Part shown: positions 1 to 14,000 of the stretch, one piece after another
How the letters are laid out: each line of letters opens with the position of its first letter
Numbering within the stretch: position 1 is the first letter of the stretch
Assembly: GCA_949297805.1 (NCBI GenBank)
Contig: CASFTG010000003.1
Span: forward strand, 132,473 to 196,472
Source of the DNA: an uncultured bacterium
GTDB taxonomy: Bacteria; Bacillota_I; Bacilli_A; RFN20; CAG-826
Length of the DNA stretch: 64,000 bases
Reading direction: 5' to 3'
Position numbers and translations under genes: made by a program
The notes under the pieces: generated by a model
Databases searched by the model: none
What the model saw: the letters and a program-made list of their open reading frames with translations, nothing else
What the model was told of the DNA's origin: nothing

Positions 1-652
1 TTTCTTTGGCGAGGATCCCGGAGTTGATGGCCGGGGCTTGGGCGACGTAGGAGTTCAAAGCCTCCAAATCCCCATGGCGGACGATTCGGGTTATGGCCTG
101 CTCGATGGAGAGGGAATTGTTGAAGTCGCGTCTATCGGCTTCGCGCCCCGAATCGGCCTCTTCGTTGACCCGGGCCGAATGGACGAGTTCGCTGTCTTCG
201 ATCGGGATGATGTCGGTGACGTTTAGCTTCTCGCCATTGAGAATATGGTTAACTGAAAGTAAGGCGGCGATGGTGCTGTCCAAGGGCATGGGGACGATGT
301 TCCTAATGTTCATTAAGAAGTTATCGACCTCATCGGGCGCGACGTCAAGCTGAAAGGCCAAGTCTCGGAGGACCTGGTCCGAAGGATGGTCGGCGAAGGG
401 AATGGGGCCGGCGATGATCTTGGTCTTGTCGTTTTGAACGTAGGCGTAATAGAAGTAGTCATTGGTCAGGAGGTAGCCGACGTGGTTCGTTTCTTTGAAT
501 AAGCGGTCCTTAACCGTCTCGATCGGGTCGGCGACGAGGTTGACCAAGGAATGGTAGAACGTCCTTTCCCCGTCTTCGTATATTCGGACTGGCGTTCCCA
601 TTAAGTTCGAGAGGACGGTGCAGACATAGTTGATATCGATGGTTCGATTCAT
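1..652 (-). CDS. Partial CDS (N-terminal ~217 aa; C-terminus lies beyond the window start), divergent from the GH3 gene; possibly the sensing domain of an AraC-type regulator
   Basis: My own minus-strand translation from the ATG at 652 (MNRTIDINYVCTVLSNLMGTPVRIYEDG...) runs open to position 1. A stop (TAA, complement of 653-655) lies immediately upstream of that ATG. The ORF track misses it because it runs off the window edge. The regulator role is a guess from its divergent position next to a glycoside-hydrolase operon. Confidence 0.45.
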   Translation of the reverse strand, partial: MNRTIDINYVCTVLSNLMGTPVRIYEDGERTFYHSLVNLVADPIETVKDRLFKETNHVGYLLTNDYFYYAYVQNDKTKIIAGPIPFADHPSDQVLRDLAFQLDVAPDEVDNFLMNIRNIVPMPLDSTIAALLSVNHILNGEKLNVTDIIPIEDSELVHSARVNEEADSGREADRRDFNNSLSIEQAITRIVRHGDLEALNSYVAQAPAINSGILAKE

Positions 653-849: not shown

Positions 850-3291
850 ATGAAAAAAGACTTAACGGAACTGTTGTCGGAACTGACGCTCGAGGAGAAG
901 ATCGCCTTGGTCTCGGGAACCGATTTTATGTATACCAATCCGATCCCCCGGCTCGGCATCCCCTCGCTTCGGATGAGCGATGGCCCCCATGGGCTCCGGG
1001 TCCAAAATGAAGGGGGCGACAATGGGGTGGCCGGGAGCGATCCCGCGACCGCCTTCCCGACCGCGGCGACGGTGGCTAATAGCTGGAATCTTGATAACGC
1101 CAAGAAGATTGGTCGGGCCTTAGGGAAAGAAGCCCATAAGTACGGGGTCAATATCGTCTTAGGACCGGGGGCTAACATCAAGCGGAGCCCAATCGCCGGG
1201 CGGAACTTCGAGTATTACAGCGAGGATCCCTTATTATCTGGGAAGATGGCCGCCTCCGAGATTCAAGGGCTCGAAAGCGAAGGGGTTGGGGCTTGCTTAA
1301 AGCATTTCGCCTTGAATAACGCCGAGACGTTTCGGAATAACGGCGATTCGGTTTGCGATGAACGGGCGATGCGGGAGATTTACCTTAAGTCGTTTGAGAT
1401 CGCCGTCAAAGAAGGCAAGCCGGCGGCCTTGATGTCAGCCTATAACAAAGTCAACGGCGTCTATTGCAGCGAGAACTCCTTCCTTTTAACCGAAGTCTTG
1501 CGTAAGGAATGGGGGTTCGAAGGACTGGTCATGACCGATTGGGGCGCGATGCATGAAAGGAATAAATCGCTTGCGGCAGGGCTTGATCTTGAGATGCCCG
1601 GCGACTGTGCCATCTGTCGTAAATGGATTTACGATGGAATTAAGGATGGTTCTTTAAAAGAAGAAGTTCTCGATCAAGCGGTCGGTAATGTCTTGAACCT
1701 TATTAATAAGTACAGCGAAAAGATAGCCGATGACAGTTCGTTTGTTGACGATGATAAAATCGCCGAGGAGATCGCGATCGATTCGGCGGTCCTATTAAAA
1801 AACGATGGGGTGTTACCCTTAGACATTAAAGCTGAATGCCTCGTGGTCGGCGATTTATTCAAACGGATGCGTTATCAAGGGGCTGGGTCCTCAATGATCA
1901 ACTCCGCCTTCCTCCATGCCCCAGAGGAAGCCTTTAAGGAATTAGGTATTAAGTATGAGTTTGTCCAGGGGTATAAAGAGAACGAAACCCAAAGCGATGC
2001 TTCGCTTATTGAAGAGGCCAAATCAAAGGCGAAAACGGCTAAAACGGTCATCGTCTTCGCTGGCTTAACCGAATACGTGGAGATGGAATCTAGCGACCGG
2101 AAAGACATGAAACTGCCGACAAATCAACTGGAGTTGATTGAAGCAATCGCTTCCGTCAATGAAAACATCATCGTCGTTTTGTTTAATGGTTCGGTGGTCG
2201 AGTTGCCGTTTCTTCCTAAGATCAAGGGATTGCTTGATATGTATTTGCCTGGACAAGCCGGGGGAAAAGCGGTGGCTAAATTGCTCTTCGGCTTGGCTAA
2301 TCCCTCCGGCCATCTGGCTGAGACCTGGCTTAATGAATACTCCCTTTTCCCTGGTAGCAGCACCTTCGGCCAAGGCCCGACTGAGGCTTATAAGGAATCG
2401 ATTTACGTCGGGTATCGTTATTGGGAGGCCCATTCAGACGGGGTTGCCTTCCCCTTTGGCTATGGGCTTAGCTATACCAAGTTCCATTGGAGCGATTTCC
2501 AAGTCAAACTGGATAGCGACGATGTCCTCGTGAGATTAAAAATACAAAATACCGGGAATTGTAACGGGGCGGAAGTCGTGCAGATCTACTCCAAAGGACC
2601 GGAAACGGAAATCGATAAACCGATTAGGGAATTGCGGGCTTTTACCAAGATTTACATGGAAAAAGGCGAAGAAAAAACCGTCGAATTGCGTTTTCCCATC
2701 AACTCGATGCAAATCTATGATGTCGTTCATAAGCGGTTTGCCCTTGAAGGAGGATCCTATTTTATCGAAGCCGGCCACGATTGCCTTGATATCGAGTTCC
2801 AAAAGGAAATCGAAATCGAGGGGGAAACCGTTCCCTGCCCCTTAAGCGCCGACTTAGCTCATAAGTATCGAGAAGGGGATATCCGCTCGATTAGCGATGA
2901 GGAGTATTACCAGTATGTTGGTTATCACCCCTCGAAGGTCAACAAGCTTCCGATTACCTTGGATTCTAAACTCGAGGATCTCGAAGCGACCTTTATGGGG
3001 AGGATTTTGAAAAAGGCGGTCCTAGGGGTCGCTTCCAAACAGCTAAGAAAAGCAAAGAAATTGGCAGAAGGACCGGAACGGGATAATAAGATCAAAGGAG
3101 CATTGTTCCTTCATTCTGTCCTCGTCAATAATACTTTAATTTCCATGAGTATGTGCGCTGGCAAATCTATGCCATATAACTTCGCTGAAGGCTTCGTTGA
3201 ATTAAGCAACGGGCATCTATTCAAAGGTATCAAGCGGTTCGCCACCAAAATACAGGCTCCAAAACTTCCAAAGGAGGAGAAACATGAGTGA
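850..3291 (+). CDS. Glycoside hydrolase family 3 β-glucosidase/β-xylosidase (BglX-like), canonical domain order
   Basis: 813 aa. The N-terminal catalytic domain has the KHF and GLVMTDWGA (Asp nucleophile) motifs. It is followed by a GH3 C-domain ([11 protein letters not shown]) and an Fn3-like tail. Confidence 0.9.
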
Positions 3292-5467
3292 GTCAAAGGC
3301 TTTGTCAAACCGAGCTTGGAATTCCCGGGTTCGGTCAAAAAACGTCACTGGGTCCGAGAAATGGTTCGGCTATTTACTCGGTCCTTGTGGGGCGTTGCTA
3401 TTCAATGCCGTCTTAGGTACTTACCTTAACGTCTACTACACCGACGTCTTGGGTTTAGGGTTCCTTTGGGGCGGATTGTTCTTGGTCATCTTCCCGGTCA
3501 TCTCGAAGATCATTGACGCGATCACCAACGTGGTGATGGGCTGGATCATCGACCGGACCAGGACTAAGCAAGGGAAAGCCCGACCCTGGCTACTATTAAG
3601 CGCGCCTTTCTTAGCCATCACCGGGGTTCTCCTCTTCGTAGTCCCGAGTGGGAATGTGACCTTACAAGCCGTCTGGGTCATGCTCTCCTATAACCTCTTC
3701 TATTCTTTCTCTTACACCATCTACAACATGAGCCACAACCTCATGGTTCCCCTTTCGACCCGGAACGCCGGTCAGCGGGGTGTGCTTGCGGTCTTCAACA
3801 ACGTATCCTCGATCATGATGAGCGGCATCGTGGTCGCCCTGATCTTCCCGATGGCCATCATGCCGTCTTTAGGGGCGTCGAAGACTTTGTGGATGATCGT
3901 TATGTCAGTCTTGGCTTGCATTACTTTGCCAGCCACCATCCTCGAATATTACTTCACCAAAGAACGAGTTACCGCCGAACTGGGCACCCAAAAGGAGAAG
4001 AAAGTCTCCTTCAAGCTGCAGCTGAAAGCCGTCTTCACTGACAAGTACATGCTGATATTACTCGGCTATTTCCTCCTTTATACCATCGCCTCCAACTTGA
4101 AGAACATGTCGTTGCCGTATTATTGCAACTACATCCTCGGCACTTATTCCGATGGCATCACCCAAACCCTCGTCTCCGTCATCGGCGGGGTCCCGATGGG
4201 AATTGGCATCTTTGCCGTTTGGCCTTTAGCCAAGAAATTCGGGAAGAAGAACGTTACCTGCGTCGGTTTCCTCCTTTATGGCATCGGTTCCCTAATCTGC
4301 TGGATGATGCCGACTAATCTCTACGTCGTCTTGGTTGGACAATTCATCAAGAACATCGGAGGTCTTCCTTGCTCCTATGTCTTCATGGCCCTCTTCTCCG
4401 ATACTTTAGATCATATGGAATGGAAGAACGGGTTCCGTTGCGACGGGCTTGCGATGTCGGTCTATTCGGTCATCTTGACCGCCGCCCAAGGCATCACCAC
4501 CGGCATCTTCAATGGCGGCATCGCCGCGACTGGCTATCAAGCCCCAGTCGTCACCACCGAGGCCGAACTTCAGTCGGCGTTGAATGAGATCGCCGCCAAT
4601 GGGTGGACGACCCAACTTGCGGCCGCTGACCTTAAAGCCGCGGCCGATGGCTCGATCACCATTGCCTTACAGCAAAACGCCAGCGTCAACAATATGATCA
4701 CATTCTTCTTCGTTGGCTTAGAGGTATTCGCTGGTCTGCTCTTCGCCTTCATGCTGATGTTCGTCCGGGTCGAGAAGACGCTCGATTCGAAACAGAAGAC
4801 CATCCGCGAAAGAATGCGTCTCGCTTGTGTTGCCGCCGGCGAAGTCTGGGTCGAGCCGGAAGTCGCGGTCGAGTTAGAGCAGAAGAAACTCGATGAAGAA
4901 GCCGAAGTCGCCTTCCGCGAGGAACTCAAAGCCAAATGCGAGAAGAAGCACTTGGATTACGAGGCTGAGTTAAAGAAACATATCGAGGCTTTAGAGGCGA
5001 AATCGGCCAAAGCTAAAGCCAAAGACGAGGCCATCGAGGCCAAAGCCGCGGCCAAGGCCAAGATCGCGGCCGATAAGCAGACGGCGAAGTTCGCTAAGAT
5101 GAGCGAAGAGAAGAAAGAGAAACTCAAGCTCAAATACGAACGGAAGCAGAAGCATGACGCCTACCTCTGGGCTATCGAACGAGCGAAAGGCGAAGTCCAT
5201 TACGCCAAGAGCTATGGCGAGATGCTTATCATTGATGAAGCCATGGAGCAGATTGAGGACAATAACCTCTCCATCAAAGAACTGAAAAAGGAAAGCCGGG
5301 CTGATATCAAAATCGGGCCGGAAAACGAAGCTAAGGTCAATGCGCTTCGGTTAGCCAACGCCAACTTGAAGGCGGTCGCTTCCCAAAAGGTCGCCGAGTT
5401 CCAAGAAGCCCATAAGCATGACGACTGGACGGTCTTAGCTCAGCAATATCTGTCTGAAGCCGCTTAA
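3284..5467 (+). CDS. MFS/GPH-family (MelB-like) glycoside:cation symporter with a ~230-aa charged coiled-coil C-terminal extension
   Basis: About 12 hydrophobic TM segments in the first ~490 aa. The [13 protein letters not shown] motif is typical of the GPH family. The Lys/Glu/Ala-rich heptad-like tail ([26 protein letters not shown]...) starts near residue 495. The ATG overlaps the upstream stop (ATGA), and an AAGGAGG RBS precedes it. Confidence 0.85.
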
Positions 5468-5537
5468 ATCACGAATCTATTCCCGAGGGGCTATCAGCCC
5501 TTTGGGAGTATTCGTTCTTAACTAAAAGGAGAGTCTC

Positions 5538-7967
5538 ATGCACTACGATAAGTGGATTGCCCCAACCGATCCTAAACCGAGCGAAATGGAAAACGCCCAT
5601 GCTGAGCTGGCCTATCAAGCTGGCTTAGAGGGAATGGTTCTGTTAGCTAATGACGGGACTTTGCCGTTGAAGAATAAACGGATTGCCCTCTATGGCGTTG
5701 GGGCCCGGCACGCCACCAAAGGCGGGACGGGCTCGGGCGAAGTCCATAACCGTTATAACATCAGCGTCGAAGAGGGATTGAAAAAGGCCGGCTGCGAAAT
5801 ACTTAGTTCGGGATGGCTCAATCGGTTGGATCAGGTGCAGGCCCAAGCGGAGCACGACCGGGTTCTGGCCTTGAAGAAGCGGCTCCATGAATGTGGTTTA
5901 TTCGACTGGCAAGGAATGGTCAACGCCGCGGTCGAGGTACCGCCGGTTTTTCCTTCCTCCCTCCCAATAAACGAAAAACTCGATACCGACACCGCCATCT
6001 ACGTCTTAACCCGTCAAGCGGGGGAAGGGAATGATCGGAAGGCCGGGAAAGGGGACTATTACCTCACCGATTTGGAGGATGAGAACATCGCTTTCCTGGC
6101 CAAGAACTATCCTCATTTCGTCTTGGTCATCAATTCCGGCGCCCCAATCGACCTCTCGATCCTTGATGAGGTAACCATCGGCAACGTCGTTTTCATGGGT
6201 CAAGCGGGGCAAGAGGGGGGTCGGATATTGGCGGACTTGCTATTAGGGAATGCCAATTTCTCGGGGCATCTCACCCTATCCTGGCCGAAGAAACTGGCGG
6301 ACCTCCCCAACGGGACTACTTACTCCTATTTAAAGGGAACCACCGATTATGAGGACTATGTCGAGGGGGTTTATGTCGGTTATCGGTTCTTCGATACTTT
6401 TGGGGTCGAGCCTCGTTACTATTTTGGGGAAGGCCTCTCCTATACCGAGTTCTCTTTGACGGCCGTTTTGGTTAAGGAAGGCAGCGATTTCTTCCTCGAT
6501 TATGAAGTTCATAACGTCGGGAAATATGGCGGTAAGGCAGTGGTGCAAGTTTACGCCTCACCTTTTACCTCCGTTACTTCCGAAGCAAAGAAACTCATCG
6601 GTTTTACGAAAACTAAGACCATCGTTCCAGGGGACTCGGTCAAGGGTCGGATAGCCCTCGATCCGCGCGATTTGGCCTATTATGAGGAGGCAAAATCCTC
6701 CTATGTGATCGCTTCGGGCCATTATGTTATCGCCGCCGGTTTCTCTTCCGTTTGCCCAAAACCGGTTGGCGTGATCGATGCCAAGGAAGCAATCGTATCG
6801 GAACGCTGCTTCCAACTTGGCTCGGCGAAGGACGAAGTGGAGGAAATCATTCCGCCGGAAAGAAGATACGTCTGTTATGAAAATATCCCAGTAATTTGCC
6901 TGGAGAAGAATGATATCCCTCCCATCGAACATGATTATTCGCCTTCAAGCTATCTCTCTATTCCGGTTTCCGATGAGGTTCTATGCGATCTAGTGGTTGG
7001 ATATCTGAATCCGGTCTCAAGCGAGAAACCGGTCGCGATCCCCGGATTCGGCGGGCGGACCTCGGCGAAATACTATACTGAGCTCGGCATTGATTGTTTG
7101 GCGACCGCCGATGGACCGGCTGGCTTACGGCTCAATCCGAAGTTCGCCGGAAGCGACGGGAAGAAAGCCCATGGGTCGATGATTCCCGAGGATATGCGGC
7201 TCGGCCGTCCTTTCTATAATTTCGTCGATAAGCTTCTCTCGATATCCTTCGCGAAAAAGCATTATCAATATGCGACGGCCTTTCCGGTCGGCCTAGTGCA
7301 AGCCGCGACTTGGAATGTCAATCTAGTCGAGAAAATCGGGCAGGCGGTTGGGGAGGAAATGGCCGCTTACGACATCGATATCTGGCTAGCTCCCGGCATG
7401 AACATCGTCCGTAACCCCCTATGCGGAAGAACCTTTGAATACTATTCCGAGGACCCATTGTTGACCGGTTGCTTAGCTGGTTATTTATCCAAAGGGGTGA
7501 ATTCGGTTCCTGGCCGCGGTTTGACCTTAAAGCACTTTTGCTGCAACTCCCAGGAGGATGACCGTTTCCACTGTGATTCCCGTGTCCATGAACGGGCCTT
7601 GCGGGAGATATATCTCAAAGCCTTCAAGATCGCGATCGCCATCGGCAATCCAACCTGCGTCATGAGTTCCTACAACCGGGTCAACGGGGAGTATGCGGGT
7701 TCAAATTCTGATCTATGTGAACGAGTTTTGCGGTCAGAATTCGGATTTAAAGGGTTTGTGATGTCGGATTGGGACGCGCAAGCCTCTGACCGGGCCAGCT
7801 GCGAAGGGCAACTTAAAGGCGGGACCGATCTATTGATGCCGGGGTCCCGCTGGACGAGGGAAGAGACCGCCAAAGCGTTAAAAGAGGGAAGACTCTGCCG
7901 AGCCGATTTAGAGAAAGCCGTTAATCGGATAATCAATGTCGCCAATAGATTGAAGGAGGGCCAATAA
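5538..7967 (+). CDS. Glycoside hydrolase family 3 enzyme with circularly permuted domain order (C-domain first, catalytic domain last)
   Basis: The N-terminus has the GH3 C-domain signature (VLLANDGTLPLKNKRIALYG). The catalytic-domain motifs sit near the C-terminus ([32 protein letters not shown]). Confidence 0.85.
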   Translation: MHYDKWIAPTDPKPSEMENAHAELAYQAGLEGMVLLANDGTLPLKNKRIALYGVGARHATKGGTGSGEVHNRYNISVEEGLKKAGCEILSSGWLNRLDQVQAQAEHDRVLALKKRLHECGLFDWQGMVNAAVEVPPVFPSSLPINEKLDTDTAIYVLTRQAGEGNDRKAGKGDYYLTDLEDENIAFLAKNYPHFVLVINSGAPIDLSILDEVTIGNVVFMGQAGQEGGRILADLLLGNANFSGHLTLSWPKKLADLPNGTTYSYLKGTTDYEDYVEGVYVGYRFFDTFGVEPRYYFGEGLSYTEFSLTAVLVKEGSDFFLDYEVHNVGKYGGKAVVQVYASPFTSVTSEAKKLIGFTKTKTIVPGDSVKGRIALDPRDLAYYEEAKSSYVIASGHYVIAAGFSSVCPKPVGVIDAKEAIVSERCFQLGSAKDEVEEIIPPERRYVCYENIPVICLEKNDIPPIEHDYSPSSYLSIPVSDEVLCDLVVGYLNPVSSEKPVAIPGFGGRTSAKYYTELGIDCLATADGPAGLRLNPKFAGSDGKKAHGSMIPEDMRLGRPFYNFVDKLLSISFAKKHYQYATAFPVGLVQAATWNVNLVEKIGQAVGEEMAAYDIDIWLAPGMNIVRNPLCGRTFEYYSEDPLLTGCLAGYLSKGVNSVPGRGLTLKHFCCNSQEDDRFHCDSRVHERALREIYLKAFKIAIAIGNPTCVMSSYNRVNGEYAGSNSDLCERVLRSEFGFKGFVMSDWDAQASDRASCEGQLKGGTDLLMPGSRWTREETAKALKEGRLCRADLEKAVNRIINVANRLKEGQ

Positions 7968-10510
7968 TGAAAGCCATTAACCTACATGTCGATTACCTTG
8001 TAAACCACTTGGGTTTAGGGAACCCCCATCCGACTTTGTCCTGGAACGATGAAGGTGGGATTAAGCAGACCGCCTACCGGCTGCTTGCTAAAACTAATGG
8101 ACAGGAAATCTATGATTCGGGCAAGGTTAATAGTTCGTCAATGAAAGTCGAACTGCCCGTCGAATTGAAGTCAAGGCAGGCCGTCGAATGGACGGTCATG
8201 GTCTATGACGAGAATGACCAATCCGAAGGTTGGAGCGAACCCGCCCATTTCGAGATGGGGCTGCTTTCCCCATCCGATTTCCATGCCTTTTGGATCAGCG
8301 GCAACTACTCGGTCAACAAGAAGGAACGTTACCCGGTCGATTGCTTTAAGAAGACCTTCCAAGTTGCCGGAGTTTCCCAAGCTCGGCTTTACATCACCGC
8401 CTGTGGCCTTTACGAAGCCAGAATCAATGGCCAAAGGGTTGGGGAATTTATTTTAGCTCCTGGCCATACCGATTATCGGAAACGGATTCAGTTACAAACC
8501 TATGACGTCACTTCTTTATTGAATGAAGGCGAGAACGTCATTGAGGTGATGTTGGCCGATGGCTGGTATCGGGGTTCCTGTGGGGCTTGGGGCTTACGGA
8601 ATCAATATGGCAAAGTAACCAAGCTTTTCGCCCAACTGGAGATTGAGGGGAAGATGGGCAAGAGAATGGTCCTTTCCGATGCTTCTTGGTCTTGGAGCAA
8701 CGATGGCCCGATCCGTTTTGCCGACAATAAGGACGGGGAAATCGTCGATTCGAATAAGAAGCCCTCTTATGCAGGTTTTGCCAAAGTTGCGAAGTGTTCG
8801 GTTATCCCGACTCCTTCCGATAACGTTTATATCCAAGAAGGCGAGCATTTCAGCCCTGTCGAGGTTACGGTCTCTCCTTCAGGCAAAACCATTTATAAGC
8901 TTCCCCAGAATATCGCCGGTTACGTTACTTTCAAAGCGAAGGCCCAAGGCGGGGAGATCATCAGACTCCAATGTGGGGAGATGCTCGATGAGCAGGGCGA
9001 ATTGACCTTGAAGAACATCCAATGCCGAAATAAGAAGAAGACCACCCCTTTGCAGCAGGTCGAATACGTCTGCCATCCCGGGGAGAATGTCTATAAGACC
9101 ACCTTCGCCATCTTTGGTTTCCAATATATCGCGGTGGAGGGACACGTCGATTCGATTGAAGGAATCGCTGTCTATTCGGCTTTGGAGGAGACCTTGACCT
9201 TTGATTCCTCCAATCCTTTGCTTAATAAGTTCGTTGAAGCCACCCGCTGGTCAGCCAAAAACAATTCGGCGGACGTCCCGACCGATTGTCCAACTAGGGA
9301 ACGGCATGGCTGGACTGGGGATTCCGAACTCTTCTTCTTAACCGCCGCCTATTTGTTCAACTATGCCCCTTTCGCTAAGAAGCATCTTCGTGACGTCTAT
9401 GATTGGCAGAAGAAAGACGGCAAATTGCCTCAGATCGCGCCCGCCGGCGGGGTTGACTTTTACATGGAAGTCATGAACGGGGCTCCGGGCTGGGCCGATG
9501 CCGGGATCATGATTCCTTATCGGTATTCCAAAATCTATCAGGATGAGGCGATTCTGCGGGAATTTTATCCAGGAATGAAGAAATACGCCGAATTCATCAT
9601 CCATCGGATGGGAAAACATACCCTTTTGTCGAAACCTTTGCATTTGAAGCACGCTTTGCGGAAATACGCGATAAATTACGGCCAAGCCTATGGGGAATGG
9701 GCCGAGCCCGCCGACGTCCATCCGATGGTCTGGACCGACTTTGTTTTCCCCAAGCCGGAAGTCTCCACCGCCTATGCCTCTTGGATGATGAAATGGATGA
9801 AGGAGATCGCGACAAAGCTTGGGAAAGAAGAGGATGCCAAACGCTTTGCCTTCTACCAAGAGAAGACCAAAGAAGCCTACCAGGCTATCCGGAAAACTGA
9901 AGAATACAAGCTCGATACCGACCGGCAGGCGATGCTGGTTCGGCCGCTTTATCTTGACTTGCTCGATAAGGAACAAACCGAGTATGCCAAGAAACGGCTG
10001 CTCGAGGCTTTAGACCATTATGATTGGCGTCTCGGCACTGGTTTCTTGTCCACACCGCTAATTTTGTTTGTCCTAGAGACAATCGACCCTGAGTATGCTT
10101 ATAAGTTGTTGGAGAATGAAAAGATGCCCGGCTGGCTCTTCATGCCCAAATCGGGAGCCACCACCATCTGGGAATCTTGGGAAGGGACCTGTGCTCAAGG
10201 GGGCGTTGCTTCCTTGGACCATTACTCCAAAGGCGCTTGCCTCGAATGGGTGTTCTCCCGGATGATGGGCATAAACCCTGACGGGGATAACCACTTCACT
10301 CTTTGCCCCCTTCCGGGCGGGCACTTCACCTATGCCGAATGCGAATACCGTTCGGTTTATGGGAAGGTTAAGGTCAGTTGGCGTCGGGCCGCCAACGGCT
10401 GGGATGTCGAGGTCGTCGTCCCATCCAATTGTCAGGCGACATTCGTCTATCCTGATAAGCGGATGGAGGAACTCGCCGCCGGGACCCATAAGCTAACTAT
10501 TGAAAACTAA
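7967..10510 (+). CDS. α-L-rhamnosidase (GH78)
   Basis: 847 aa. N-terminus is LHVDYLVNHLGLGNPHPTLSW. DVPTDCPTRERHGWTGD is the GH78 signature. The start overlaps the upstream stop (TAATG). Confidence 0.9.
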   Translation: MKAINLHVDYLVNHLGLGNPHPTLSWNDEGGIKQTAYRLLAKTNGQEIYDSGKVNSSSMKVELPVELKSRQAVEWTVMVYDENDQSEGWSEPAHFEMGLLSPSDFHAFWISGNYSVNKKERYPVDCFKKTFQVAGVSQARLYITACGLYEARINGQRVGEFILAPGHTDYRKRIQLQTYDVTSLLNEGENVIEVMLADGWYRGSCGAWGLRNQYGKVTKLFAQLEIEGKMGKRMVLSDASWSWSNDGPIRFADNKDGEIVDSNKKPSYAGFAKVAKCSVIPTPSDNVYIQEGEHFSPVEVTVSPSGKTIYKLPQNIAGYVTFKAKAQGGEIIRLQCGEMLDEQGELTLKNIQCRNKKKTTPLQQVEYVCHPGENVYKTTFAIFGFQYIAVEGHVDSIEGIAVYSALEETLTFDSSNPLLNKFVEATRWSAKNNSADVPTDCPTRERHGWTGDSELFFLTAAYLFNYAPFAKKHLRDVYDWQKKDGKLPQIAPAGGVDFYMEVMNGAPGWADAGIMIPYRYSKIYQDEAILREFYPGMKKYAEFIIHRMGKHTLLSKPLHLKHALRKYAINYGQAYGEWAEPADVHPMVWTDFVFPKPEVSTAYASWMMKWMKEIATKLGKEEDAKRFAFYQEKTKEAYQAIRKTEEYKLDTDRQAMLVRPLYLDLLDKEQTEYAKKRLLEALDHYDWRLGTGFLSTPLILFVLETIDPEYAYKLLENEKMPGWLFMPKSGATTIWESWEGTCAQGGVASLDHYSKGACLEWVFSRMMGINPDGDNHFTLCPLPGGHFTYAECEYRSVYGKVKVSWRRAANGWDVEVVVPSNCQATFVYPDKRMEELAAGTHKLTIEN

Positions 10511-10581
10511 CCTAGAAAACTGAAAAAACATTAAATACATGCACGATGGAGCTAACGGATAAAGGATAGAATTAACCAGCG

Positions 10582-11886
10582 ATGAAAAATAGGTTTCTAG
10601 CAATCGACATCGGCGCCTCTTCTGGTAGGGCGATTCTTTCGTCGGAGGCGGACGGTTTGCTCACTTGCGAGGAGGTTTATCGTTTCCCTAATGGCCCGCT
10701 TATGCAAGATGGCCATTTGGTTTGGGATATCCAACGGCTACTAAACGAAATCGAAAACGGGATAAGGGCCGCCTTTAAGGTTTGCCCGGATATCCGAAGC
10801 CTTTCTATTGATACTTGGGGCTGCGATTACGTCTTGCTTAAAGGCGATAAGGTCGTTTATCCCGCCTATTGCTACCGTGATTCTCGGACTGAAAAGGTCA
10901 TCGAGGAAGTCCACAAGCTCGCCCCTTTTTCCGAACTTTATGGCCTAACTGGCATCCAATTCCAACCATTTAATACCTTATATCAACTTTATGAGGATAA
11001 GGTGAACGGGAGGTTAGAGGGCGTCACCGACTTCTTGATGCTGCCGGAGTACTTTTCCTATCGGTTAACGGGGGTTAAGAAGAAGGAATACACCAACGCC
11101 ACCACGACCGGTTTAGTTGGGACGGATGGCGAGTTTGCCTCTTTGATTATCGATCGGCTCGGTCTTCCATCGCATCTTTTTCCCAAACTCAGCCAACCCG
11201 GAACGATCGTCGGGACGGTTCTCCCTGAGGTTGCGGCTGAACTCGGCGGGGATTGTCTTGTTAAACTTTGCGCTTCCCATGATACCGCTTCGGCGGTTGA
11301 GGGGGTGGTGCTCCCTAGCGACGCTCTTTATCTTTCTTCCGGCACTTGGTCGTTGCTCGGAGCCAAAGTCGAAACCCCGATCACGACCGAAGTGGCTCGT
11401 GCCTGTAACTTCTCCAATGAAGGCGGGCCCGGGTATATCCGGTTTCAAAAGAACATCATGGGAATGTGGGTCATTAACCGACTCAAGGATGAACTTTGCC
11501 CAGCGGAAGACTTCGCTTACGTCATCAAATTGGCTAAGCAAAGCCGTTCCAAGAAGACGGTTGCGATCAATGGGCCAGCCTATTTAGCCCCCGTCTCGAT
11601 GAGGCAAACTATCGAAGCGGAAATTGGGGAAGGGGAACTGCCTCCGAGCGAGTTATTCCGCATCGCCTTCAATTCCTTGGCGAAGTCTTATGCCGACACC
11701 ATCAAGCAAATTGAAGACATCACCCATAAATCATTCGATTCCCTCGTCATCTTCGGCGGCGGGGCCAAAAACGGCTTCCTCAACGAGTTGACTGAGCGGA
11801 TATCCGGCAAGCGGGTCATTGCTTTGCCGGTTGAGGCCACGAGCCTTGGCAATCTAAAAATCCAAATGAAAGGAGATAAAGCATGA
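10582..11886 (+). CDS. rhaB: Rhamnulokinase (FGGY carbohydrate kinase)
   Basis: N-terminus AIDIGASSGRAIL. FGGY-type C-terminus FGGGAKNGFLNEL. Lies immediately upstream of rhaA and rhaD. Confidence 0.85.
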   Translation: MKNRFLAIDIGASSGRAILSSEADGLLTCEEVYRFPNGPLMQDGHLVWDIQRLLNEIENGIRAAFKVCPDIRSLSIDTWGCDYVLLKGDKVVYPAYCYRDSRTEKVIEEVHKLAPFSELYGLTGIQFQPFNTLYQLYEDKVNGRLEGVTDFLMLPEYFSYRLTGVKKKEYTNATTTGLVGTDGEFASLIIDRLGLPSHLFPKLSQPGTIVGTVLPEVAAELGGDCLVKLCASHDTASAVEGVVLPSDALYLSSGTWSLLGAKVETPITTEVARACNFSNEGGPGYIRFQKNIMGMWVINRLKDELCPAEDFAYVIKLAKQSRSKKTVAINGPAYLAPVSMRQTIEAEIGEGELPPSELFRIAFNSLAKSYADTIKQIEDITHKSFDSLVIFGGGAKNGFLNELTERISGKRVIALPVEATSLGNLKIQMKGDKA

Positions 11887-13127
11887 CTGACAAGTATTTA
11901 TTGGCGAAGGAGGAATACGCCAAAGCTGGCGTCGACATCGACGCCGCCATCGCCCGGATCAAGGAGATCCCCATCTCGATCCATTGCTGGCAAGGGGATG
12001 ATGTCATCGGCTTCGATGGGTCCGATTCTTTAGAAGGCGGGATCCAGACGACCGGCAATTACCCGGGACGGGCTCGGAATTTCGCAGAGCTGAAAGCCGA
12101 CCTCCATGAGGCTTTCTCCCTCATCCCGGGGAAGAAACGGCTCAACCTCCATGCCTCCTATGCCATCCTTAACGGCGAAAAGGTGGAACGGGACGCCTAT
12201 CGTCCTGAACACTTCGCCCCTTGGGTTGAATTTGCCAAAGAGGAAGGACTCGATGGGATTGATTTCAACCCGACTCTCTTCTCGAGCCCCCATATGAAAG
12301 ACGGGGTGTCTTTATCTTCTCCGGATGAAGAAACGAGGAAATTCTGGGTCCGCCACTGCCAAGCCTGTATCCGGATTTCGGAATATTTCGCTAAGGAAAT
12401 GGGAAGCCACTGCCTAATGAACATCTGGATTCCCGATGGGTATAAGGATGTGCCCGCCGATCGATTAGGGCCGCGCCTCCGCTTGAAAAAGAGCCTCGAT
12501 GAAATCCTTTCAATCGGCTATGACCGTAGCCTTGTCAAAGTCGCGGTCGAGAGCAAGGTATTCGGCATTGGGCTCGAATCCTATACTGTTGGCAATTCCG
12601 AATTCTATATGAATTATGCGGCGAAGAATAACCTTTGCTGCCTATTGGATAATGGCCATTACCACCCCTTAGAATACGTGAGCGATAAGATTCCTTCCTT
12701 GATCGCTTTCTATGATAACGTTGCTCTCCATGTCACGCGGGGAGTCCGTTGGGACTCCGATCACGTGGTCACCTTTGAGGATGAACTGAAAGAGATCGCT
12801 AAGGAAATCATCCGGAATGAGGCCGATAAGAAAGTCATGATTGGCTTGGATTATTTCGATGCCTCGATCAACCGGATCGCCGCGTGGGTCACCGGGGCGC
12901 GGAATATGGAGAAGGCGTTGCTTTATGCGGCCTTAATAAACAATAAGAAGTTGAAGGAACTGCAGGATCAAGGCGACTTCACCACCCTCTTCGTCGAGAC
13001 CGAGGCTCTGAAGGATCGGCCATATGGATTGGTCTGGGAAGAATACTTAAAAGAGCAGGGGCTCGAACTTGATTATCTAACCCCGATTAGAGAATACGAA
13101 AAACAAGTCTTAAGCAAGAGGAAATAA
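11883..13127 (+). CDS. rhaA: L-rhamnose isomerase
   Basis: 414 aa with IHCWQGDDVIGFDG and the conserved metal-binding region. The ATG overlaps the rhaB stop (ATGA). Confidence 0.9.
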   Translation: MTDKYLLAKEEYAKAGVDIDAAIARIKEIPISIHCWQGDDVIGFDGSDSLEGGIQTTGNYPGRARNFAELKADLHEAFSLIPGKKRLNLHASYAILNGEKVERDAYRPEHFAPWVEFAKEEGLDGIDFNPTLFSSPHMKDGVSLSSPDEETRKFWVRHCQACIRISEYFAKEMGSHCLMNIWIPDGYKDVPADRLGPRLRLKKSLDEILSIGYDRSLVKVAVESKVFGIGLESYTVGNSEFYMNYAAKNNLCCLLDNGHYHPLEYVSDKIPSLIAFYDNVALHVTRGVRWDSDHVVTFEDELKEIAKEIIRNEADKKVMIGLDYFDASINRIAAWVTGARNMEKALLYAALINNKKLKELQDQGDFTTLFVETEALKDRPYGLVWEEYLKEQGLELDYLTPIREYEKQVLSKRK

Positions 13128-13129
13128 GT

Positions 13130-13960
13130 ATGAAAGACATTTTGGAAAGCCGGTTCTTAAAAGAATTCTGTCTAACCGCCGACAACATGTATCGGCTCGG
13201 CTGGGATGAACGGAACGGGGGCAACATCTCGTTGCTGCTTAAAGACGAGGAGGTCAAGGAATACCTTGATGTCAACTCGGTTAAGCGGGTCATCCCCTTA
13301 ATGGGAGTTCATACGGTCGATTTCGATATCTCGCCCCTTATTGGAAAGTGCTTCCTCGTCACCGGGACCGGCAAGTACTTTAAAAACGTCTTACGGGAAC
13401 CGGAAGTCAACCTCGGCGTCGTCCGGATTCGCGAGGACGGCAAGTCGCTTGATCTGCTTTGGGGATTTGAAGATGGGGGACGGCCGACGAGCGAATTCCC
13501 AGCCCATATGATGAGCCATATCGCCCGGCTTTCAGTCGATCCGGATAATCGGGTGGTGATGCATTGCCATCCGACCTATACCCTAGCCATGAACTTCGTC
13601 CATCCCCTTGATGAGAAGCTCTTCACCAAAGACCTCTGGCGGATGTGCACCGAATGCGTCGTCGTCTTCCCCGATGGAATCGGGGTCTTGCCTTGGATGC
13701 TCTGCGGGACGACTGAAATTGGGAAAGCAACCGCCGAGAAGATGAAGGAATACCGGCTGGTCGTCTGGGCGATGCACGGGATCTATGGGGCGGGTAAGGA
13801 CTTAGACGAAACCTTCGGCCTCATCGAGACGGTCGAAAAAGCGGCCCAGATATACATGCTGACCTTCGATAAGCCCCAGTGCAACACCATCAGCGATGAC
13901 AACATGAAGCAACTGGTTGACTTGTTCGCAGTCAAAGTAAAAGAGGGCTATCTTGATTAA
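13130..13960 (+). CDS. rhaD: Rhamnulose-1-phosphate aldolase (class II aldolase)
   Basis: 276 aa. It has a class II aldolase/adducin fold signature (HCHPTY, MHGIYGAG) and follows rhaA. Confidence 0.9.
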   Translation: MKDILESRFLKEFCLTADNMYRLGWDERNGGNISLLLKDEEVKEYLDVNSVKRVIPLMGVHTVDFDISPLIGKCFLVTGTGKYFKNVLREPEVNLGVVRIREDGKSLDLLWGFEDGGRPTSEFPAHMMSHIARLSVDPDNRVVMHCHPTYTLAMNFVHPLDEKLFTKDLWRMCTECVVVFPDGIGVLPWMLCGTTEIGKATAEKMKEYRLVVWAMHGIYGAGKDLDETFGLIETVEKAAQIYMLTFDKPQCNTISDDNMKQLVDLFAVKVKEGYLD

Positions 13961-13967
13961 CGTTCTT

Positions 13968-14000
13968 CCCCGTTTAGCTCGCTAGACGGGGATTTCTTTT
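13968..14000 (+). terminator. Rho-independent terminator after rhaD
   Basis: Hairpin CCCCGTTTAGCTCGCTAGACGGGG followed by ATTTCTTTT. Confidence 0.6.

Follow-up and report, generated by a model that had tools for sequence, protein, structure and literature searches.

To our knowledge, post-translational control of bacterial secondary sugar transporters is documented in a handful of cases: LacY and MelB are controlled by EIIA-Glc, LacS by its IIA domain, and ProP and BetP by osmosensory tails. The C-terminal domain of ProP is about 45–50 aa long and has heptad character. In MelB (TC 2.A.2; PDB 4m64, 7l17, 8t60), an amphipathic C-terminal tail helix stabilises the inner barrier, bridging the N and C bundles and touching helices V and X; this helix becomes disordered in the inward-facing state and is a suspected contact for EIIA-Glc, and loop 11-12 seals the periplasmic opening (PMC10942615). 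The C-terminal EIIA-Glc-like domain of LacS (∼160 aa) regulates transport, and the extension of ProP toggles between membrane binding and antiparallel pairing (PMC10710835). The locus described here encodes a transporter of gut Clostridia in which a GPH core is joined to three clade-specific accessory elements: an N-terminal motif of ∼20 aa, an enlarged loop 11-12 and a C-terminal tail of 232 aa.

The transporter gene occupies positions 3284..5467 of the + strand of the window (the whole 64,000-nucleotide stretch of DNA that was analysed) and encodes 727 aa followed by a TAA stop codon. Direct reading of the sequence places a Shine-Dalgarno sequence, GGAGG (3273..3277, + strand), 6 nt 5' of the ATG, within the 3' end of the upstream GH3 gene. 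The original prediction held that the reading frame is continuous and GC3-rich throughout and that the tail is not a frameshift artefact. The frame is indeed continuous, and GC3 is 0.71 in the body of the gene and 0.66 in the tail, versus 0.58–0.61 in neighbouring genes. As independent assemblies encode an identical 727-aa protein, and relatives carry the same ORF, the tail is not a product of frameshifting.

Residues 29-495 form a 12-helix GPH/MelB-type MFS transporter, with TM1-TM11 at 3368..4537 (+ strand; residues 29-418) and TM12 at 4682..4768 (+ strand; residues 467-495). Family profiles, the sequence match to MelB and the fold match all confirm the GPH/MelB-type identity proposed at the outset. 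Pfam MFS_2 (PF13347) matched residues 29-434 (E=1.5e-89; 300.9 bits for a cutoff of 27), and TIGR00792 'gph' scored 219.3 bits, slightly under its 231.35-bit cutoff because the insertion and the tail interrupt the last TM. MelB 4m64 was the best solved relative in a PDB sequence search (E=5e-22), and Foldseek gave TM-scores of 0.72–0.77 against MelB and MFSD2A. The AF2 model has 12 TM helices, as expected of the two six-helix bundles of the family, with 33 K+R on the predicted inner loops versus 2 on the outer loops and both termini in the cytoplasm. The loop 2-3 motif of MelB (T-R-S-R-W-G-K-F-K-P-W) is aligned by the segment running from D90 to position 102, the two proteins having D-R-T-R-x-x-G-K-x-R-P-W in common, and G97 through W102 are invariant in the transporter family. 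In the MelB alignment only the D55 equivalent of the Na+/H+ acidic set D55/D59/D124 is kept (D78); D59 is replaced by N82, which is invariant, and D124 by N148, and the K18 and D19 positions are A37 and L38. Loss of D59 and D124 does not exclude GPH membership since residues of this set are not universal among GPH carriers, and the protein is a member of the GPH:cation symporter family (TC 2.A.2).

Two of the accessory elements flank or interrupt this core. The N-terminal cytoplasmic extension (3302..3367, + strand; residues 7-28), ∼19 residues of which MelB lacks, bears a clade-wide motif, (F/L)..x..S(R/K)VKSxNV..EK.lGY; AF2 pLDDT is low in the extension. Motif and tail occur together, and a search of the window and 35 loci turned up no paralogue without the tail. 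The second element, originally described as a soluble insertion of ∼45 aa ahead of the last TM, lies between TM11 and TM12 (4538..4681, + strand; residues 419-466). The insertion itself is real; however, both the AF2 model and the K+R topology argue against a cytoplasmic location and for an extracellular elaboration of loop 11-12. It is acidic (1 K+R, 5 D+E), is predicted by AF2 to fold as a small alpha/beta unit made of two strands (422-425, 457-460) and a helix (429-438) at pLDDT 84–90, and occurs in the family in two length variants of 35–36 aa and 48–49 aa. Loop 11-12 is the longest outer loop in both proteins, but it measures ∼48 aa here and about a dozen in MelB.

The tail begins directly after TM12, at residue ∼496 (nt 4769), in agreement with the start near nt 4766 that had been proposed. 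Its 232 residues (496-727) are cytoplasmic, rich in Ala, Lys and Glu as previously noted (A40, K38, E36), near-neutral overall (46 K+R, 47 D+E) and predicted to be all helical. AF2 places helices at 496-517, 525-555, 559-605, 608-673, 675-709 and 715-726, and the tail modelled alone has a pLDDT of 89. The tail is three-tiered, with an ancient, conserved proximal module of ∼75 aa, a Lys/Ala/Glu helix followed by the W629 helix, and an optional distal hairpin. The proximal module (4769..4993, + strand; residues 496-570) comprises, in order, a basic amphipathic juxtamembrane helix (496-517; net charge +3, muH 0.44), a GEVWVEPE turn, an acidic-then-basic helix (525-555) ending in LKAKC-KK(G/H)L-D-(Y/F), and the start of the helix that runs from 559. 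C552 and the KKGL turn show no or almost no variation. In the Lys/Ala/Glu-rich helix (4994..5098, + strand; residues 571-605), composition is kept among relatives while the sequence varies; a GCCAAA-type hexanucleotide repeat is found at 5006-5062, LIVMFYW residues account for 15%, and the pattern is Ala/Lys-rich, not Glu/Lys-alternating. Domain II of TolA is likewise a long, Ala/Lys/Glu-rich helix, but it is periplasmic and the segment here cytoplasmic; the likeness is one of composition, together with the predicted helicity and the scarcity of hydrophobic residues. AF2 tends towards long helices for Lys/Glu/Ala-rich low-complexity sequence, and for residues 571-605 disorder or a single free helix is also conceivable.

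A helix break at KM(S/T)(P/E)E(E/Q) opens the next segment (5099..5233, + strand; residues 606-650), which continues as a helix in which W629 and E632 are invariant and G636 nearly so; all family members at >=60% identity have this segment, and the short forms of ∼640 aa end with it. The conserved Met606 was considered as an internal start and rejected, a Shine-Dalgarno sequence being absent upstream; the KM(S/T)PE motif coincides with the break that the model predicts at 606-607 and is better read as a helix cap than as a start. The distal helical hairpin and terminal helix (5234..5464, + strand; residues 651-727) have a pLDDT of 93–98 in the tail-only model and occur in 18 of 121 family members (∼15%), scattered over the core tree.

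Hundreds of relatives have kept the tail; more than 120 homologues with 60–89% identity, 637–767 aa in length, carry it. Its absence from the orthologues of close relatives had been named at the outset as an outcome that would refute the original prediction. This is not the case: across 25 genomes of uncultured gut Clostridia, transporter and tail share one ORF in every copy with sufficient upstream DNA, the exceptions being two split copies, both in draft MAGs. The mean frequency of the top residue is 0.84 in the proximal module and 0.83 in TM12, and gap-free BLAST alignments of the module extend to 19 relatives, with core identity as low as 26%; distant, short-tailed relatives end in polybasic C-terminal stretches. 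A tail-only word-index search returned zero matches although close homologues exist, a null result attributed to the low-complexity composition combined with the word index, and an exhaustive profile search was used in its place. Among 1.84 billion representatives it yielded 190 matches, of which all long ones are collinear with the transporter; judged from these matches, the tail is confined to this transporter type. Some odd architectures, such as tails joined to MATE-like, FGGY or TIM-barrel pieces, also turned up among the profile matches; each is a lone metagenomic fragment with the look of a frame error or chimera and was not counted as an alternative architecture. The 809-aa proteins in the homologue clusters, mixed in by a quirk of the database, are the neighbouring GH3, not tail-bearing relatives.

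An artefact, in which a frameshift has fused two genes, or a functionless low-complexity extension, left by neutral drift of a charged tail, might be suspected from the short hexanucleotide repeats and low complexity of the middle tail, the frequent loss of the distal part and the empty word-index search. However, the same ORF recurs in independent assemblies and in the 25 genomes, the proximal module is conserved like a TM helix, with W522, P525, C552, W629 and E632 among the invariant residues of the tail, and Met606 lacks a ribosome-binding site. This explanation is highly improbable and in effect already refuted, and the tail is real and under selection.

The gene lies in a conserved locus. 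On the − strand, a divergent AraC-family regulator runs off the window (2..652, N-terminal 217 codons). On the + strand, a GH3 beta-glucosidase-like gene (850..3291), the stop codon of which overlaps the transporter start by 8 nt, precedes the transporter, and the downstream block (5538..13960) encodes a second GH3 (5538-7967), a GH78 alpha-L-rhamnosidase (7967-10510), an FGGY kinase (10582-11886), RhaA (11883-13127) and a class II aldolase (13130-13960). The AraC / GH3 / transporter / GH3 / GH78 / rhamnose-catabolism arrangement is conserved, the AraC / GH3 / transporter / GH78 (/ rhaBAD) order being kept among relatives. None of the glycosidases of the locus, the first GH3 included, has a signal peptide. 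Based on this synteny and on the missing signal peptides, the most likely substrates of the transporter are rhamnose-containing beta-glycosides, taken up intact and hydrolysed in the cytoplasm. The proximal module is also borne by distant relatives in UxuA-SDR-GPH-GH2 and AraC-SDR-GPH-GH2 loci, and it is therefore not tied to one substrate.

These relatives bear on the idea that the tail is a docking platform, tethering the co-encoded GH3 and GH78 and channelling imported glycosides. GH3 / transporter / GH78 synteny is tight in >20 genomes, the overlap of the GH3 stop with the transporter start suggests translational coupling, and the C-terminal ∼156 aa of the upstream GH3 have no domain assigned to them. 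But the module is present in GH2/UxuA loci without GH3 or GH78 and so cannot be specific to these enzymes, which leaves this explanation quite improbable.

The tail had also been described as a heptad-patterned coiled coil, and here the data disagree. At period 3.5, the Fourier power of tail hydrophobicity gave z=-0.7, compared to 32.6 for tropomyosin and 5.3 for GCN4 in the same test; no sub-segment of the tail was significant, and the 3.5 periodicity is absent from the averaged family profile as well. Pairs of the i to i+4 Glu-to-Lys/Arg kind, which are dense in the hydrophobic-poor helices of single alpha-helix (ER/K) domains, number only 0.03–0.13 per residue, counted without a calibrated control. 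Long alpha-helices, as a coiled coil would have, are predicted in the tail by AF2. As hydrophobic heptad periodicity is missing, the tail is predicted to be helical but is not a canonical coiled coil.

This result weighs on the possibility that the tail is an oligomerisation device, in which its helices, the distal hairpin and W629 helix above all, would pair with the tail of a second protomer and hold the transporter in a dimeric or higher oligomeric state, like the coiled coil of ProP. The GPH members LacS and XylP are reported dimers, the helices of the tail are long and confidently predicted by AF2, and there is the precedent of ProP, an MFS transporter that dimerises through a helical C-terminal domain (PMC10710835). 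However, besides the lack of heptad periodicity in the sequence and the family profile, the best-predicted part, the distal hairpin, is missing from ∼85% of the family, and conservation is highest in the membrane-proximal module, not in the long helices. We therefore consider oligomerisation an unlikely role for the tail.

Domain searches gave no name to the tail. Pfam and NCBIfam returned no match at E<=0.1, and a PDB sequence search with the tail profile returned none. When 26 tails were compared with Pfam at E<=10, only sub-threshold noise was obtained (DUF1977 in 8 members, best E 0.099), and none matched an EIIA family. SHOCT (PF09851), a candidate for the L-K-x-K-C-x-K-K-G-L-D-F-x-x-E motif, was rejected: at E<=10 it is absent from the full table for the window tail and from the 25 most-matched of the 33 families found with the 26 tails. 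Our literature search found no description of this tail. The tail is a conserved domain that matches no described domain in Pfam, NCBIfam or PDB.

These searches constrain a reading in which the tail is the docking site of a soluble regulator, such as an HPr-type inducer-exclusion signal or the divergent AraC-family regulator, coupling transport state to carbon-source signalling as a functional analogue of EIIA-Glc on MelB or of the fused IIA of LacS. Like this protein, LacS/RafP-type carriers of lactic acid bacteria are Gram-positive GPH transporters with a large cytoplasmic C-terminal accessory domain; unlike LacS, the tail has no EIIA domain in Pfam or NCBIfam and is all helical, not a beta-sandwich. 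The suspected EIIA-Glc site on the MelB tail helix (PMC10942615) and the C-terminal regulatory domain of LacS (PMC10710835) set precedents. The AraC regulator is conserved beside the locus, the occurrence of the module across loci for differing substrates fits a common partner, and C552 and the N-terminal S18, invariant or nearly so, are possible regulatory sites. But the partner is a candidate only, and the tail holds no EIIA or known interaction domain in Pfam or NCBIfam. Docking of a soluble regulator is thus rather unlikely. Regulation mediated by the tail through protein contact, oligomerisation or localisation, as originally suggested, would be plausible.

The reading that we favour, tentatively and as one possibility, is that the tail is a clade-specific regulatory domain extending the inner-gate tail helix of MelB-type carriers. 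Both proteins have an amphipathic helix straight after TM12, but MelB is 476 aa long with a tail of ∼44 aa, whereas the 232-aa tail here carries a conserved helical module. Helix 496-517 would be the counterpart of the MelB tail helix, the two being equated by position and amphipathicity, as the MelB alignment ends at residue 422. The helix would be extended here into a small helical module, and this module would tune the outward/inward transition, and hence transport activity, by docking on and detaching from the cytoplasmic face or the membrane. The charged helices beyond it may act as a spacer or as a handle for self-association or a soluble partner, and the enlarged loop 11-12 may be a like elaboration of the outer-gate seal of MelB. 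Docking on the core is a proposal: in the full-length AF2 model, residues 520-540 have a pLDDT of 61–63, versus 79–87 in the tail-only model, so that AF2 is not confident where the proximal module sits against the core. The dispensability of the distal hairpin in most lineages also counts against the favoured reading. A bolder extension, which we regard as doubtful, is that the S(R/K)VKSxNV motif and the proximal module, whose cysteine is invariant, together make up a built-in regulatory switch not described before, a PTS-independent counterpart of inducer exclusion by EIIA-Glc or of the LacS IIA domain. It would gate the inner barrier on a cytoplasmic signal (such as a partner protein, redox state or phosphorylation) and be common to a whole clade of glycoside importers in gut Clostridia (Christensenellales-like).

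Charge suggests one further role, that of an ionic-strength or lipid sensor in which alternating acidic and basic helices would switch between anionic lipids and each other, as in the C-terminal domains of ProP, BetP and OpuA (PMC10710835). The tail is strongly charged yet near-neutral, its juxtamembrane helix is basic and amphipathic, and distant relatives have polybasic ends. Among MFS transporters, ProP likewise has a C-terminal extension in the cytoplasm that is charged and helical, and BetP and OpuA share charged helical cytoplasmic C-termini. BetP and OpuA have unrelated folds (BCCT, ABC), no sequence similarity and an osmoregulatory role, and ProP belongs to another MFS family than this catabolic glycoside carrier. 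Without heptad signal and in a setting of glycoside catabolism, the tail does not resemble a ProP-type osmosensory domain, and as these loci do not serve osmolyte uptake there is no obvious reason for osmotic gating. We consider this role improbable.

The favoured regulatory-domain reading places a clade-wide conserved domain without a database name on elements that MelB structures mark as stabilisers of the inner and outer gates, a natural system for testing how such elements control the transport cycle. The carriers come from abundant uncultured gut Clostridia, and their loci probably import dietary rhamnoglycosides (such as flavonoid rutinosides) and glucuronide-type compounds; regulation of the carrier thus bears on the processing of plant glycosides by the microbiota. 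At the 3' end of the gene, a stem-loop of 15 pairs with a T-rich tail (5478..5510, + strand) lies 11 nt past the stop codon, where it may serve as a partial terminator or stabilise the mRNA.

The transporter is encoded by an ORF at 3284..5467 on the forward strand, which yields a 727-aa product. Pfam MFS_2 (PF13347) covers residues 29-434 (E=1.5e-89), and the GPH model TIGR00792 gives 219 bits, slightly below its 231-bit cutoff. Hydropathy was read together with an AlphaFold2 model built from 121 sequences (pLDDT 76, pTM 0.70); together they show 12 TM helices, the last of them (TM12) at residues about 467-495 and set apart from TM11 by an additional stretch, residues 419-466; between 496 and 726 the tail is modelled as continuous helix. 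Sequence and fold both assign the core to the GPH/MelB-MFSD2A group. The original prediction, a GPH/MelB-type symporter with an extra domain, was largely right, and its boundaries (tail from nt ~4766, insertion at nt ~4538-4684) agree with both hydropathy and the model. GC3 was 0.71 in the body of the gene and 0.66 in the tail, in line with its description of a frame that is GC3-rich throughout. The predicted loops carry 2 Lys+Arg on the outer side vs 33 on the inner side; as this distribution fits the N-in/C-in topology of the melibiose permease MelB, the closest solved relative by sequence, the tail is cytoplasmic. The insertion is extracellular, and the cytoplasmic location that had been implied for this soluble segment is wrong.

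The tail had been judged not to be a frameshift artefact, and this was borne out. The exact 727-aa sequence was recovered from independent assemblies, in Logan (ERR10610461) and ENA (ERZ16268049), and a database search returned >120 cluster representatives of 637-767 aa and 60-89% identity, which cover 79-100% of the window protein, mostly at least 88%. A tail-derived pattern scanned over species-representative genomes identified 25 loci, all from uncultured gut Clostridia (the named ones being Ca. Borkfalkia, Ca. Gallimonas and Ca. Coproplasma). Wherever upstream DNA exists, the tail and ~480-500 transporter residues lie in one ORF, with two exceptions: in L006 and L024, both draft MAGs, the gene is split into two ORFs, by a frameshift of assembly or because the copy is a pseudogene, either of which is possible. 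Thus, the split copies aside, the 25 loci provided neither a frameshift nor an orthologue devoid of the tail. That the tail is an artefact or a neutral extension is excluded in effect by the independent assemblies, by the shared ORF and by the conservation of its proximal module.

This conservation, expressed as the mean top-residue frequency over 121 sequences, was 0.92 for the TM core (residues 29-418), 0.83 for TM12 (467-495) and 0.84 for the proximal tail (496-570); it then fell to 0.72 in a Lys/Ala/Glu-rich helix (571-605), 0.65 in the helix bearing W629 (606-650) and 0.48 in a distal hairpin (651-727), which is present in only 18 of the 121 sequences. On a tree of the core, short and long tails are interspersed and the distal parts are still alignable, so loss or exchange of the distal hairpin has occurred repeatedly. 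Full-length relatives of 553-599 aa, at 26-42% identity to the window protein by BLAST, have the proximal module alone and end in a polybasic stretch. An alignment of the module in 19 diverse sequences of this kind is gap-free, with the consensus vEK-x8-i-x2-r-x-kaa-x2-a-x-G-x-(v)(W/Y)-x2-P-eer-x3-E-q-e-x2-d-x-eaEe-x-r-x2-eL-k-a-k-C-x-K-K-G-L-(D/N)-(F/Y)-x2-E-x-a-K-(Y/H). Cys552 (4937-4939), within LKAKC-KKGL-(D/N)(F/Y), is invariant in all 19, including those with core identity as low as 26%; this residue could be a redox or modification site, or may do no more than pack in the helix C-cap. The Gly of KKGL is His in the window protein. One homologue (P0002, 85% identity by BLASTP) has an in-frame deletion of 34 residues that removes helix 525-555 of the module.

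An exhaustive search of 1.84 billion representative proteins with a tail profile gave only 190 matches, and all long ones were collinear with the transporter; a few fragments of odd architecture look like chimeras or frame errors. The tail alone had no Pfam, NCBIfam or PDB-sequence match, and no description of it was found in the literature. The tail is a real accessory domain, conserved but without annotation, on a transporter of known type; it is not categorically new biology. Known accessory domains of comparable carriers are EIIA-like in LacS and a short coiled coil in ProP (PMC10710835). The tail differs from the former in having no EIIA match and from the latter in having no heptads.

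The absence of heptads bears on the original prediction of a heptad-patterned coiled coil, which was not upheld. Of the 232 tail residues, 40 are Ala, 38 Lys and 36 Glu. Fourier power of the hydrophobicity signal at period 3.5 detected the positive controls as expected (tropomyosin, z=32.6; GCN4, z=5.3), whereas no significant signal came from any predicted helix of the tail, and the whole tail gave z=-0.7. Hydrophobicity averaged over the family alignment likewise lacked this periodicity, and a cruder best-register heptad score was no better than that of shuffled sequences. The tail is thus not a heptad coiled coil; a charged domain, helical throughout and folded into intramolecular hairpins, describes it best. 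Low-complexity sequence rich in Lys, Glu and Ala is readily modelled as helical by AlphaFold2, so the stretch 571-605 may be a free helix or in part disordered. Short GCCAAA-type hexanucleotide tandem repeats at 5006-5062 encode an Ala-Lys run, which points to slippage as the way in which the low-complexity part of the tail changes. Oligomerisation through the tail, as in ProP, is possible but unlikely, with no heptads to parallel the ProP coiled coil.

In MelB (PMC10942615), an amphiphilic C-terminal tail helix touches both bundles, at helices V and X, and stabilises the inner barrier; it becomes disordered in the inward-facing state and is a suspected contact of EIIA-Glc. The longest of the periplasmic loops, 11-12, closes the outer opening when the protein faces inward. 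The insertion and the tail of the window protein elaborate exactly these two gate elements. The insertion is acidic and enlarges loop 11-12, and its predicted fold is small and of alpha/beta type, with a pLDDT of 84-90; in the family it is 35-36 aa or 48-49 aa long, both variants being scattered over the tree. A basic, amphipathic helix, 496-517 (net charge +3, muH 0.44), comes directly after TM12. Because both extra segments fall on the gate elements and this helix has such a character, we propose that the proximal module would extend the inner-gate tail helix in a clade-specific way and modulate the transport cycle, and that the charged helices past it would be a spacer, or a handle by which a partner or a second tail is bound. 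We favour this explanation as a whole with somewhat less than even confidence: its descriptive part is near certain, whereas the mechanism is inferred by analogy with MelB. In the full-length model residues 520-540 have a pLDDT of 61-63, which would argue weakly against a fixed docked state. Sensing of ionic strength or lipids by the tail, as in ProP, BetP and OpuA, is very improbable. The tail gives a clearly delimited and testable way into how GPH transporters of abundant gut Clostridia are controlled after translation. A cytoplasmic N-terminal motif, (F/L)..x..S(R/K)VKSxNV..EK.lGY (3302-3367, residues 7-28), is present in 19/19 diverse tail-bearing relatives and is a possible partner of the tail; disorder is predicted for this region, with a pLDDT of about 28, and the motif is absent from MelB, which lacks about 19 of these residues.

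The analogy with MelB does not extend to substrate and coupling, as the residues of both sites differ. At the cation site, the essential D59 and D124 of MelB correspond to N82 (3527-3529; invariant in the family) and N148 (3725-3727), and the equivalent of D55, D78, is kept in the window protein but lost in many distant tail-bearing relatives; at the sugar site, K18 and D19 are replaced by A37 and L38. The replacements at the cation site make the coupling ion uncertain, and even the existence of coupling.

The transporter gene lies between two genes for cytoplasmic GH3 glycosidases, followed by a GH78 alpha-L-rhamnosidase, an FGGY kinase, the L-rhamnose isomerase RhaA, a class II aldolase and an SDR. 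The GH3 / transporter / GH78 order recurs in >20 of the 25 genomes, often with rhamnose catabolic genes next, and also around a short-tailed homologue. As none of the glycosidases of the locus has a signal peptide on inspection, the carrier most likely imports intact rhamnose-containing beta-glycosides. Tethering of these enzymes by the tail was considered, but distant relatives bearing the module lie in UxuA-SDR-GPH-GH2 and AraC-SDR-GPH-GH2 loci; the proximal module is therefore not tied to GH3, GH78 or rhamnosides, and tethering is very improbable. An AraC-family regulator is encoded divergently upstream (2-652, reverse strand; the N-terminal 217 codons are in the window); it is kept beside the locus in the homologous contigs L026, L028 and L029, and in L035 an AraC regulator adjoins a distant tail-bearing transporter. 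That the tail acts as a docking site for this protein or for a global regulator is rather unlikely.

The transporter ORF begins 8 nt before the upstream GH3 gene ends (3284-3291), and GGAGG (3273-3277) lies six bases 5' of the ATG, which suggests translational coupling of the two genes; the overlap recurs in the short-tailed homologue of L028 (GH3 end 10004, transporter start 10001). A strong stem-loop at 5478-5510 (15 pairs, 7 G-C, then a T-rich stretch), just past the transporter stop and ahead of the second GH3 gene, could act within the operon as a partial terminator or to stabilise the mRNA, and a second terminator-like site (13967-13992) lies 3' of the aldolase gene. The second GH3 (5538-7967) is permuted in its domain order, with the GH3 C-terminal domain at residues 33-282, an Fn3-like domain at residues 335-404 and the GH3 N-terminal domain at residues 578-801. 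The 90%-identity cluster of the window protein lists 809-aa members that are the neighbouring GH3, a database quirk rather than biology. In the upstream GH3, about 156 C-terminal residues past the Fn3-like domain (~658-813; 2821-3288) have no Pfam match and are not covered by alignments to solved GH3 structures; the length of this region is conserved in orthologous loci.
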